Shown here: positions 6,001 through 9,000 of the stretch, one piece after another | Layout of the letters: each line of letters starts with the position of its first letter | Position numbering within the stretch: the stretch's first letter is position 1 | IMG/VR virus record: IMGVR_UViG_2521172589_000011 | Direction: 5' to 3' (one strand) | Length of the DNA: 27,160 bases | Origin: a virus | Lineage: Duplodnaviria; Heunggongvirae; Uroviricota; Caudoviricetes | Program-made: the position numbers

Positions 6001-9000
6001 AGAACTTCTGCTGTTACCCACTTGCGGAATTTGTGCGGGACTGAACCTTTATTGACAGCATCGCGGCAGCGCAGAACCAATGTATACATACCTGATTCGC
6101 TAACAATGCTTAGATTCTGCTCACCACCAAGGGTGTAACTTAAAGTTACTCCCTTTTCATCGTCATCAAGTGCAGTAAGCGCCTTGCGTGAGTTAGTCAG
6201 AGTTAAAGCATCACAAACATCTTTTGCCACAAACCACGGCTCACCGCACTTGTTGATGACGCGGATTTCACTGTCGCCGAATTTGAAGATGGTGAAATCG
6301 TTTTGTGCCTTTGCTATACTTTTCATGTCAATATTTCCTAATCCGATTTGTTGATACCGAAGCCCTGACTGTTCCCGCAGTTGGGGCTTCACTGTTTTGA
6401 TTTCTTTGCCGCATCAAGCATCACTTCTGAAAACGTGCGCTTGCCACTGAATACTCTTTCTCTTCTCAATTTTTCGTTCGTGCCAAATGATTCGCCATGA
6501 ACAAAATTTGGTCTCAAAATGGTAAGCGCAATCTCTTTGACTACTGCATCCAAGCAAATCACACTGTTACCCCCTCCCTCTTCAGGCTGTCCAGCACCCG
6601 TTTAATTACTTCTGCGCTGAATGAGCGACACTCTTCCTTTGCTTTTTCTTCAAGAATTTTTTCTAGCTTCTCTGGCATACGCAGTGTTTTTACCTTCATT
6701 GCATCCTCCGTTGTATGTGGTACGCATACATAGTATTTAGGTACGCATTGATAGTCAATAGATACCTACATATCCTGTGGTAAAAAATTATTCAGGATGC
6801 GCCGATGTCTGATCGTAAGTACAAAAACCCTCAAGTGAATCTGAGGCTTCCTGTAGAGATAAAGGAACGTCTTATTGAACTGGCTGAGGCTAATTCTCGT
6901 TCATTAAATGCTGAGATGGTAGCAGCACTTGAGGCATGGACTGAAAAAAATAAACATATTCAAGCACTAGATCTTGCAACTATAGCATCGCGGTTGATAG
7001 AGCTTGAGCATGAGGTTGAGAAGTTAAAATGTATGCATGGCAACAGTGAAAAATGAAACGTATCGCTATTTTGTTAATATTGTTCTTCTCTACAATAGTT
7101 TTCGCCAAACCAAAATCAGATAATGGCGATCTTAAAGGCCTGCAAGAACTCATGATAACTTCGAAATTTGCTGGCATGTGCGGCACAATCAAACAAATGG
7201 CAACATTTCAAGAATCAACAAAAATGCCTGGCGGAGATGAGTTCTTACAGCGTTTTCTGACCACAGAGCAAGCAAGACTAGGAATGAATCCACAGGAATT
7301 TCTTGAAGCATGCCAGAAGTCAATTTCAGCTTATACCAATTATTACAATCTAACTTCTGATAAATAATAGAAAGGATTTTATAAATAACTTTATGAAAAA
7401 ATCACTATTAATTATCCCGCTTCTGCTGGCTGGATGCGCAAAAGTAAGTGACTACCAAGCAAGTTGCGAACAACGCTATCCAAAGCTTAGTGATATGGCT
7501 AATTGCCTTGATGCCAGCGTGAAGAACGACTCACGCATGGCATCAGCACCAACACCTAAGCTGTATGTCCTTGCTGCGAAGATGCTCGGGCAAGGTGTCG
7601 ATCAAGGCAAGATAAGTGACGCACAGGCAAGACTTGAGCTACAGAATCTTTATGTTCAATTACAAAGCCAAGAACAAGCCCAACAAATAGCACAAAGCCA
7701 AGCATTCCAGCAGGCTTTATTGAATTATCAGGCTGTAAACACAATGCAAGCGATCGAGCAAAAAGCGCGCCAGCCTGTTATAACTCAACATTACCCAACA
7801 CGCGTTGACACATATACAAACTGCAATTCAGGATTTGGAAACACGGTAACATGCAACAGTAGCAGTAATATCAGGTAGTTATATCTTATCTTTTATTGCT
7901 GTTCTGCTGTAATTTGGCTTGAAAGTATAGGGCGTATCGCATTTGCAGCATTATTTAGCGCTCTTTCATAAGCTGGCGTTCCAGTTTTAGTGTTTGCCAG
8001 GCGTAAGAGAGCATTCCTTGCTGCTTTGGACTCATACAAGCGCATCATTGCACCAAAACCAGCCTCAAGCCCCATTGATACGCCAAGGGTCGCAGTTGCG
8101 CCAATCGTCCTTATCCTGTTGGCTTGCGATTGCCCCGTCTGAGTTACTACATTTGCGGTGTCTGACCTTGCTGTTTGCTGTAGAACTTCATGAAGAGCAT
8201 CAAGCTCTTTCATGTGCTTTCCAGAAAAAATAGTGTTGTAAATTTCACCGCCTGACTGAGATTTCAGCTTATTAACTTCAGTGATGAACTTGGCTGGAGA
8301 GTCCCCTGCCTTTTCCGCTATTTTGCTGACGTAAGCTGCACGCATAGCATCTTTCCCCTTATCATCCAGTGCGCTCCAGATTCGTTTCACGTCAGATGGT
8401 TTTCTGCTTAATACAACGGTATTTATAAGTTCAGGACTGGCTTCACTGCTTGCCTTGTTGAGCTTGTTGGCAATGTTTTTATTAAGCACCTTATTATAAA
8501 CGTTTGCATAATCGGAATTTGCTTTAAGGTATTTTGCTGCGTCTGATGCACCGAGGTTTTTAGCAACTGCGTTACGAAGGTCTTTTGACATTGCATTCTC
8601 TACCATATTGGTAGCTGCTTTTGCCTGGTTGGGGAAGACCATAGCATCTCCCTGAACATTAGATCTAAATGCTGTTCTGTGCTGACGCAAGAGATCAAAC
8701 GTAACATCCAAATCAGTTGCAGGGTTTGCTAATTCTTCACGTAGGTTACGCAAGGATGTAAGCAGGCTTTGATTGGCAGACGTCCCAAGCCGTTCCTGTC
8801 TTGCGATCGCTGTATTCAGAGCATTCATGGTATTTGTGGTATCAACTGCGGCATTACCCATTTTATTGGTGACGTCATTGATAACAGCGCCAGCGGCATC
8901 CTTCCGCCCCCTTAACGTGGTGGTAAGAGATTTCACCACATCATCAGGGTTGTACTCACCAAAACGGTCAAAATAATTACTTACCAGCTTACTACGCGTT

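Follow-up and report, generated by a model that had tools for sequence, protein, structure and literature searches.

The 27,160-nucleotide viral stretch IMGVR_UViG_2521172589_000011 (the window) carries, between the repressor gene mnt and a homolog of P22 gene 16, two open reading frames (ORFs) that we call ORF1, for a secreted protein, and ORF2, for a lipoprotein. Members of both families are interchangeable with the superinfection exclusion gene sieA at a single regulated site of P22-like prophages that, by established rules for export signals, carries envelope proteins only. The two products are almost certainly real exported proteins, and the genes very probably represent independently mobile envelope cargo expressed from the prophage. 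Superinfection exclusion, argued by analogy with SieA, is the likeliest of the functions considered, though we put it forward tentatively.

In the annotated P22 genome (BK000583) the order is gene 16, sieA with its own promoter (PsieA), the mnt terminator, orf59a, and mnt; the last two are co-transcribed and the transcript is then terminated. This order places ORF1 in the position of orf59a and ORF2 in that of sieA, so the slot that an earlier interpretation made from the DNA alone (the sequence-only reading) had assigned to superinfection exclusion is indeed the one where P22 keeps sieA. The correspondence extends to regulatory DNA. In 19 loci, the ca. 407 bp before ORF2 are 98% identical to the P22 stretch comprising the mnt terminator and PsieA (TTGGTACGTTTCCAATGTTAACTTTTTTCAT), and the identity ends inside the ribosome-binding site, with AAAACTAAGGAG followed by AGTTAATTATATG replacing GTTGGTGTG. 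When all loci were searched for this block of terminator, PsieA, and ribosome-binding site, ca. 410 bp (P22 locus L013, 2832-3240) were found to be kept at 97 to 99% identity, also in loci L080 (where ORF2 follows it), L043, L032, L027, L034, L029, L203, and L205, in front of eight unrelated ORFs: SieA, ORF2, a subfamily of ORF1 (subfamily B, see below), and five others that code for a 68-aa YobH-like protein and for proteins of 129, 62, 75, and 109 aa. In seven of the eight, the common sequence runs through AAGGAGGTTGGTGTG and breaks off there, at the GTG start codon. Every occupant has an N-terminal signal peptide or membrane helix, a feature found in 3 of 32 nonoverlapping ORFs of the window. 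Family searches assigned no function to the occupants other than SieA, the 68-aa protein falling in YobH, a host-protein family. From these alignments, the block has the look of an expression site set aside for envelope proteins that can replace one another. Leavitt et al. (2024, PMC10883804) showed that sieA in single copy suffices for exclusion when it is preceded by 85 bp of its upstream DNA, in which the putative PsieA lies. Among proteins, SieA alone is known to stop short-tailed phages from delivering their DNA; 22 of 66 sequenced P22-like phages, about one-third, carry it (PMC10883804).

To describe the occupancy of the slot, homologs of the window genes were placed in each fetched locus by tblastn. 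Relatives of ORF2 were always the last gene on the plus (mnt) strand, 20 to 100 nt from the end of gene 16 (80 of 80 IMG/VR loci), and the same position abutting gene 16 was seen in phages Gally, vB_EcoP-720R6, VSe13, and Proteus phage Brookers, as well as in Tatumella and Providencia genomes. They were paired with at least three gp16 sequence types, and the gene upstream varied (mnt directly, a reverse-strand ORF, P22 orf59a, ORF1, or others). Within the Enterobacterales, they were found inside P22-like prophages only. Since none of 78 ORF2 loci held a multi-pass membrane ORF of at least 120 aa in the interval, ORF2 and SieA-like proteins are mutually exclusive at the site. A second survey, anchored on gp7 and hence neutral to slot content, resolved 67 loci, with ORF2 in 15, SieA in 2, ORF1 together with ORF2 in 1, only a Mnt-like gene in 26, and nothing in 11. 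The strongly conserved ORF2 is the commonest occupant of the sieA slot in E. coli prophages, about seven times commoner than SieA in this slot-neutral sample. Such patchy presence (15 of 67 loci for ORF2 and 1 of 67 for ORF1), with homology breaking at start codons, is a trait of morons. A survey of what P22-like prophages hold between mnt and gp16 had been suggested by the sequence-only reading as a check; it returned varied contents, with ORF2 abutting gp16 wherever it occurred.

The distribution of ORF1 is different. Subfamily A (at least 72% identity) follows a Mnt-family gene at no more than 15 nt in 22 of 22 loci, with three mnt sequence types, and subfamily B (45 to 57% identity, including Kapi1_059) adjoins gene 16. 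Among 5426 complete E. coli genomes, ORF2 was present in 186 (3.4%, among them the O104:H4 outbreak clone and LF82, a strain associated with Crohn's disease), ORF1 in 61, and a contiguous mnt-ORF1-ORF2 arrangement in 18; the pair also appeared in ca. 10 IMG/VR loci. About 70 of 80 ORF2 loci lack ORF1, 12 of 22 subfamily A loci lack an adjacent ORF2, and the homology between the window and ORF2-only phages starts at the ORF2 start codon. These separate distributions and the junction at that codon indicate that recombination has brought two independent cassettes side by side in the ORF1-ORF2 pair of the window. The initial reading had treated the two genes as one module, which did not hold up, since each occurs alone in many prophages; an obligate two-gene module is rejected on the same distributions. 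A cooperation of the two proteins, for instance of a periplasmic partner with a lipoprotein anchor, would fit two adjacent, co-oriented genes with no terminator in the 25 nt between them, kept together in the genomes and loci just listed. We nevertheless regard it as largely refuted and very improbable, given how seldom the two are found together, the recombination-joint mark exactly at the ORF2 start codon, and the fact that a relative of each gene fills the sieA position alone.

Several loci illustrate this mobility further. The mnt-ORF1-ORF2 cargo, 97 to 100% identical among loci L014 to L023, is joined to gene 16 of the window, CUS-3, and Gally types, which indicates recombination immediately downstream of ORF2; in L021, gene 16 itself is a mosaic. 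A 51-kb IMG/VR contig of siphovirus type (L036, 4462-5291) has, between its tail and lysis genes, an immI-like unit in which an ORF1 homolog lies after an Arc/Mnt-like gene of 142 aa and which also holds two ant-like genes, so that the pairing of a Mnt-like repressor with ORF1 travels beyond P22-like phages. ORF1-family genes were also found alone on the opposite strand in the early region of lambdoid prophages, next to RecT recombination genes, in Pseudomonas chlororaphis (L214, 6001-6324) and Pseudomonas sp. (L224, 5001-5324), the former directly beside a cI-type repressor gene. In lambda, the lysogen-expressed exclusion genes rex hold the position beside such a repressor.

Export signals were judged from inspection, hydropathy, and conservation across the families. 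The N terminus of ORF1 reads MKRIAILLILFFSTIVFA and then KPKS, with a signal peptide of residues 1 to 18 (7053-7106) that shows the features of a Sec signal (MKR-IAILLILFFSTI-VFA before K), namely, a charged n-region, a hydrophobic core, and small residues at -3 and -1. Across the family, the N-terminal sequence varies and its hydrophobic character is kept. ORF2 starts with MKKSLLIIPLLLAGC, its signal peptide spans residues 1 to 14, and the lipobox LLAGC lies at residues 11 to 15 (L12-A13-G14-C15, with the Cys15 codon at 7435-7437). In both proteins the N-terminal segment is the sole hydrophobic one. All 35 close relatives have Cys15, as do at least 90% of the distant ones; position +2 is Ala, and Asp never occurs there in two family alignments. 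By the +2 rule, established for lipoprotein sorting, this points to the outer membrane, with the protein facing the periplasm. The sequence-only reading was thus right in recognizing two exported proteins at 7053-7878, each now placed in a conserved family, as well as in describing the first as AT-rich (37.1% GC, compared with 45.7% for the window; ORF2, at 44.4%, is not deviant) and as translationally coupled to mnt through an ATGA overlap of its ATG (7053-7055) with the mnt TGA (7054-7056).

Both ORFs evolve under constraint. The ratio of nonsynonymous to synonymous substitution rates (dN/dS) is ca. 0.17 for ORF1, measured against alleles 72% identical in protein, and has a median of 0.06 for ORF2 over 54 distinct alleles. 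These low values, together with conserved families that have invariant cysteines, mark the two as genes and rule out chance ORFs. ORF1 matches phrog_19844, of unknown function (E 7.1e-64 over residues 1 to 104). A single-sequence search gave only 18 clusters, and a profile search gave 310 proteins of ca. 100 to 107 aa, with relatives in Salmonella, Yersinia, Serratia, Pseudomonas, Methylophaga, Nitrosomonas, and Sulfurimonas. Invariant in the family are K38, G41, C43, F52, Q53, G61, F64, R67, E72, R75, C87, and Y94, with the motif FQESTKMPGGDEF. In an AlphaFold model (predicted local distance difference test [pLDDT], 75.6), ORF1 is a three-helix bundle in which the conserved loop joins helices 1 and 2 and the cysteines C43 and C87 sit on helices 1 and 3. 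The mature protein (86 aa, ca. 9.7 kDa) would then be a helical protein of the periplasm, probably stapled by a disulfide. ORF2 matches phrog_6067, also of unknown function (E 4.1e-109 over residues 1 to 161). A direct search gave 97 clusters across the Enterobacterales, and a profile search, clustered at 50%, returned 261 representatives, mostly of 125 to 135 aa. Their common architecture comprises the lipobox, Q-x2-C-E...C, KLY-L-A, A-R-x-E-L-Q, a linker of variable length that in ORF2 itself is Gln-rich (helix 85-125), and a C-terminal T-x-C...G...C hairpin. The ORF2 model (pLDDT 66) has a helical N-domain that holds C25 and C38, one long helix, and a beta-hairpin with a predicted disulfide between C144 and C154. 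The product would be a lipoprotein of ca. 16 kDa, predicted to lie on the inner face of the outer membrane.

The first reading recognized neither protein family, and neither is a characterized one. Pfam, NCBIfam, and PADLOC scans of both gave nothing above noise (weak T3SS_needle_F, RVT_N, and GspK matches were far below the curated cutoffs, and the name GspK attached to one database cluster probably stems from a spurious Gln-rich match), and Pfam scans of 34 diverse members per family assigned none. Profile searches against PDB sequences and fold searches of BFVD and PDB found no match; PADLOC-DB 2.0 had no defense model, and Pfam Lambda_Bor no match, at E ≤ 1. ORF2 gave no BLASTP alignment with P22 SieA at E ≤ 100, and ORF1 is unrelated in sequence to P22 orf59a (BLASTP E 1.1). 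No literature was found on the two RefSeq accessions, their locus tags, LF82_138, or O104:H4 prophage transcriptomes.

Expression could be followed in published RNA sequencing data of strain LF82 (Misson et al., PMC9928086, tables S1 and S4), whose prophage Gally carries an ORF2 allele, GALLYPH_13 (LF82_138), 98% identical to that of the window. Its level, as log2 fragments per kilobase per million (FPKM), was ca. 6.1 in lysogeny broth (LB), 8.0 in the B1/B6 samples, and 10.3 and 8.6 in macrophages at 1 and 6 h, respectively (6 h versus LB, log2 fold change of 2.55, q 4.7e-27), and the adjacent gene 16 stayed at 3.6 to 4.1 in all conditions (PMC9928086). The prophage thus transcribes ORF2 while its virion genes are silent. 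In non-LB conditions, the allele is 16- to 80-fold above neighboring virion genes (PMC9928086, table S1). In overnight LB, it had 70.2 normalized reads against a prophage median of 15.6 (4.5-fold), and Gally was scored as moron-free by the authors because this value fell under their fivefold cutoff of 78.1 in that medium (PMC9928086). A 139-aa ORF common in the slot, GALLYPH_14 (LF82_139; Gally OV696608, locus L001, 3448-3867, minus strand), lies between mnt and the ORF2 allele and is transcribed in LF82 even more strongly than the latter, with log2 FPKM of 9.8 to 11 in B1/B6 and macrophages and ca. 5.5 in LB. The mnt gene of Gally was at background in LB and rose ca. 40-fold in macrophages (PMC9928086).

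In the window itself, the scans found neither a separate promoter nor a terminator for ORF1 and ORF2, and none of the candidates for an own sigma-70 promoter of ORF2 passed. A weak site seen by eye, CTGATA-17-TATAAA (7357-7385), is speculative and would give a nearly leaderless ORF2 mRNA. With no terminator-like site from mnt to the end of ORF2, transcription that reads through from the mnt promoter is the simplest explanation, by which ORF2 would be expressed here; mnt, ORF1, and ORF2 most likely form one operon, in which ORF1 would be made through translational coupling to mnt. Co-transcription with mnt, from which the sequence-only reading argued, suits the window; in P22, the mnt transcript ends before sieA. 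In other prophages, the sieA promoter itself would drive ORF2 and the ORF1 subfamily.

The same data bear on whether the proteins serve the lytic cycle only, as a lysis or release accessory or as a shield of the induced cell against re-infection, and play no part in the stable lysogen. The up-regulation of sieA on induction (PMC10883804) and a weak PHROG match to Rz-like spanins (E 0.052) would suit this, but the match is limited to the signal peptide region, the genes stand on the strand opposite the late operon, most related phages do not have them, and the Gally allele is transcribed while late genes are silent; we give this explanation very little credence. Spanin identity was likewise rejected, since neither the strand nor the place of the genes suits a spanin.

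If the proteins do exclude phages, both would interfere with genome delivery of superinfecting phages, from the periplasm and outer membrane where SieA acts from the inner membrane. Their target might be the conduit that the ejection proteins gp7, gp20, and gp16 of P22-like phages form, or an envelope component that this conduit needs. In its fullest form, the proposal would make the sieA locus an "expression socket" and ORF1 and ORF2 new exclusion proteins striking this conduit or its envelope partner, so that together with SieA there would be an entry block for each envelope layer; in that form we consider it doubtful. Other points weigh against exclusion more generally. A slot and promoter in common with sieA show equivalent regulation, not equivalent function, and neither protein resembles SieA, Cor, Llp, Bor, or the PADLOC defense proteins in sequence or fold. 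The sequence-only reading expected expression from the prophage along with mnt: transcription of the ORF2 allele in Gally agrees with the first part, but mnt is undetectable in Kapi1 lysogens (PMC12922286), as it is at background in Gally in LB, and the text of the Kapi1 transcriptome paper gives no figures for the ORF1 relative Kapi1_059. In the window, ORF2 is without the Shine-Dalgarno sequence and the promoter region (PsieA or another upstream region) that it has elsewhere; in 7357-7392, GAAAGGA ends 16 nt before the ATG, and there is no Shine-Dalgarno sequence at a usable distance. Relatives of ORF1 occur in nonphage contexts in Sulfurimonas and Methylophaga, and a distant ORF2 relative (P0224) is chromosomal, between a Zn-peptidase gene and earP/bio genes, which suggests that the ancestral role of both families may be a general envelope function; other distant relatives of ORF2 follow a Repressor_Mnt gene in one case and lie near a terminase gene in another.

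Induction of the ORF2 allele in cell-culture medium and macrophages also means that host adaptation fits as well as exclusion. One or both proteins could alter the lysogen envelope in a Bor-like manner, with effects on stress, serum, bile, antimicrobial peptides, or intracellular life. Consistent with such host-fitness or virulence conversion are the increase of GALLYPH_13 relative to LB (ca. 4-fold in B1/B6 and ca. 16-fold in macrophages at 1 h), the ordinary chromosomal contexts of distant relatives of both genes, the sibling ORF of the YobH family behind the sieA promoter, and the origin of the window in a pathogen. However, deletion of the whole Gally prophage left the macrophage survival of LF82 unchanged (PMC9928086), the only characterized occupant of the expression site is an exclusion protein, and the confinement of enterobacterial ORF2 relatives to P22-like prophages is against it as well, so that we rate this conversion as somewhat unlikely. 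A further explanation, which we consider improbable, is orphan immunity, in which periplasmic or outer-membrane inhibitors would guard the lysogen against periplasm-acting toxins such as colicins and other bacteriocins, type VI amidase or lipase effectors, or phage or host lysins.

Superinfection exclusion by envelope cargo remains our working proposal, and the genetic setting of the two genes is given in Table 1. In a comparison of positions 6700-8000, the window and a P22-like (Lederbergvirus) prophage found in E. coli O104:H4 showed 100% identity; in strain 2011C-3493 (NC_018658), this prophage is inserted beside tRNA-Arg and yfdC.

Table 1. Features of the window around the cargo slot, in local order
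Feature	Position	Strand	Evidence or remark
Tailspike gene		-	First in local order, before ant
ant (antirepressor), immI region	5448..6326	-	Pfam Bro-N and P22_AR_C; PHROG anti-repressor Ant; coding-sequence coordinates transferred from NC_018658 RefSeq
sar antisense RNA	6328..6393	+	Rfam RF00262, 63.7 bits against a gathering score of 43; terminator-like hairpin at 6359-6390
arc repressor gene	6559..6699	-	Pfam Arc, E 3.3e-08; RefSeq: Arc family DNA-binding protein
Divergent overlapping promoter-like sites, position of P22 Pant/Pmnt	6730..6776	both	Consensus scan
mnt (Arc/Mnt-family repressor), first gene of the plus-strand unit	6805..7056	+	Pfam Arc, E 2.9e-10; 94% identical to CUS-3 Mnt
ORF1, 104-aa secreted protein	7053..7367	+	RefSeq "hypothetical protein" WP_000820795.1; phrog_19844
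ORF2, 161-aa lipoprotein	7393..7878	+	RefSeq "lipoprotein" WP_000749286.1; phrog_6067
Gene 16 homolog (P22 gp16-like ejection/DNA-transfer protein)	7893..9740	-	Homology; remaining virion genes come next

ORF2 and the gene 16 homolog are convergent, with 14 nt between their stop codons. ORF1 and ORF2 had been described as the only plus-strand genes inside the virion-gene block; their strand is as described, but mnt and sar are also on the plus strand there. Since sar adjoins the 5' end of ant, the whole P22 immI circuit (ant, sar, arc, and mnt) is present in this E. coli prophage. The promoter-like sites read TTGATA-17-TATCCT on the plus strand (6748-6776) and TTGACT-17-TACTAT on the minus strand (6758-6730) and, in a layout that fits annotated P22, presumably act as equivalents of Pmnt and Pant. 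The only other ORF of the window with a strongly hydrophobic N terminus codes for a 640-aa membrane protein of the acyltransferase family (1375-3297, plus strand), located between the integrase and tailspike genes on the strand opposite the latter, and is probably an O-antigen-modifying gene of lysogenic conversion.

P22 specialists know the interval between genes 16 and 9 for its variable cargo. Since both genes are, moreover, already annotated and in PHROGs, they are best described as prophage envelope morons and not as a new kind of system. What is new is that ORF2 and one subfamily of ORF1 correspond precisely to sieA in both position and regulation, that ORFs are swapped at a site holding envelope proteins only, that ORF2 is so much commoner than SieA in E. 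coli, and that existing expression data had been overlooked. The analysis thereby identifies occupants of the sieA site in many phages without SieA. Should ORF1 and ORF2 exclude phages, they would give a new means of studying the passage of ejection proteins through the outer membrane and periplasm and would bear on phage-therapy host range in pathogenic E. coli; should they help the host instead, they would count as new factors of lysogenic conversion, and this in a notable pathogen. Testing either case is simple, as the promoter fragment that suffices for sieA can be placed before each gene singly.

Among known systems, SieA (phrog_7745) is the nearest to ORF2 in position, both being the last mnt-strand gene abutting gene 16, between genes 16 and 9, although a positional likeness confers no membership by itself. 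In related prophages, the two share promoter, ribosome-binding site, and start codon, and both are envelope proteins found in the same range of host genera (PMC10883804) and mutually exclusive at the locus. Unlike ORF1 and ORF2, which belong to other PHROGs, SieA has a proven function and is a multi-pass inner-membrane protein of 162 to 164 aa with a cytoplasmic FxRYPxEAxxFNK motif. It is defined by three to four transmembrane helices, and P22 SieA shows at least three hydrophobic segments by the measure that gives one each for ORF1 and ORF2; the former is a soluble secreted protein and the latter a lipoprotein, with no membrane helix past the signal peptide. P22 orf59a resembles ORF1 as a small ORF directly after mnt and within its transcript, and in several prophages recombination has set it side by side with ORF1 or ORF2; their sequences are unrelated, however, and a terminator follows orf59a, whereas none follows ORF1 in the window. 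Lambda Bor/Iss is, like ORF2, an outer-membrane lipoprotein expressed from the prophage and encoded on the opposite strand within a phage gene block, but it lies at a different genomic position and has neither a Pfam Lambda_Bor match to ORF2 nor any other similarity. The closest mechanistic analogy for ORF2 is with Cor (phi80/N15) and Llp (T5), small disulfide-bearing outer-membrane lipoproteins that block the receptor FhuA from the inner face of that membrane and thereby stop related phages. ORF2 is more than twice as long as these, with a helical stalk, and there is no homology, the only PHROG Cor match (E 0.078) covering residues 1 to 29, the signal peptide; Cor and Llp also come from FhuA-dependent siphoviruses, whereas P22-like phages use the O-antigen and ejection proteins. 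Ltp offers a parallel: this prophage lipoprotein with helical domains binds the tape-measure (channel-forming) protein of an incoming phage and blocks DNA injection. Its logic is the same as the one proposed here for ORF2 against ejection proteins, and Ltp, from Streptococcus phage TP-J34, is cited as an exclusion lipoprotein in PMC10883804.

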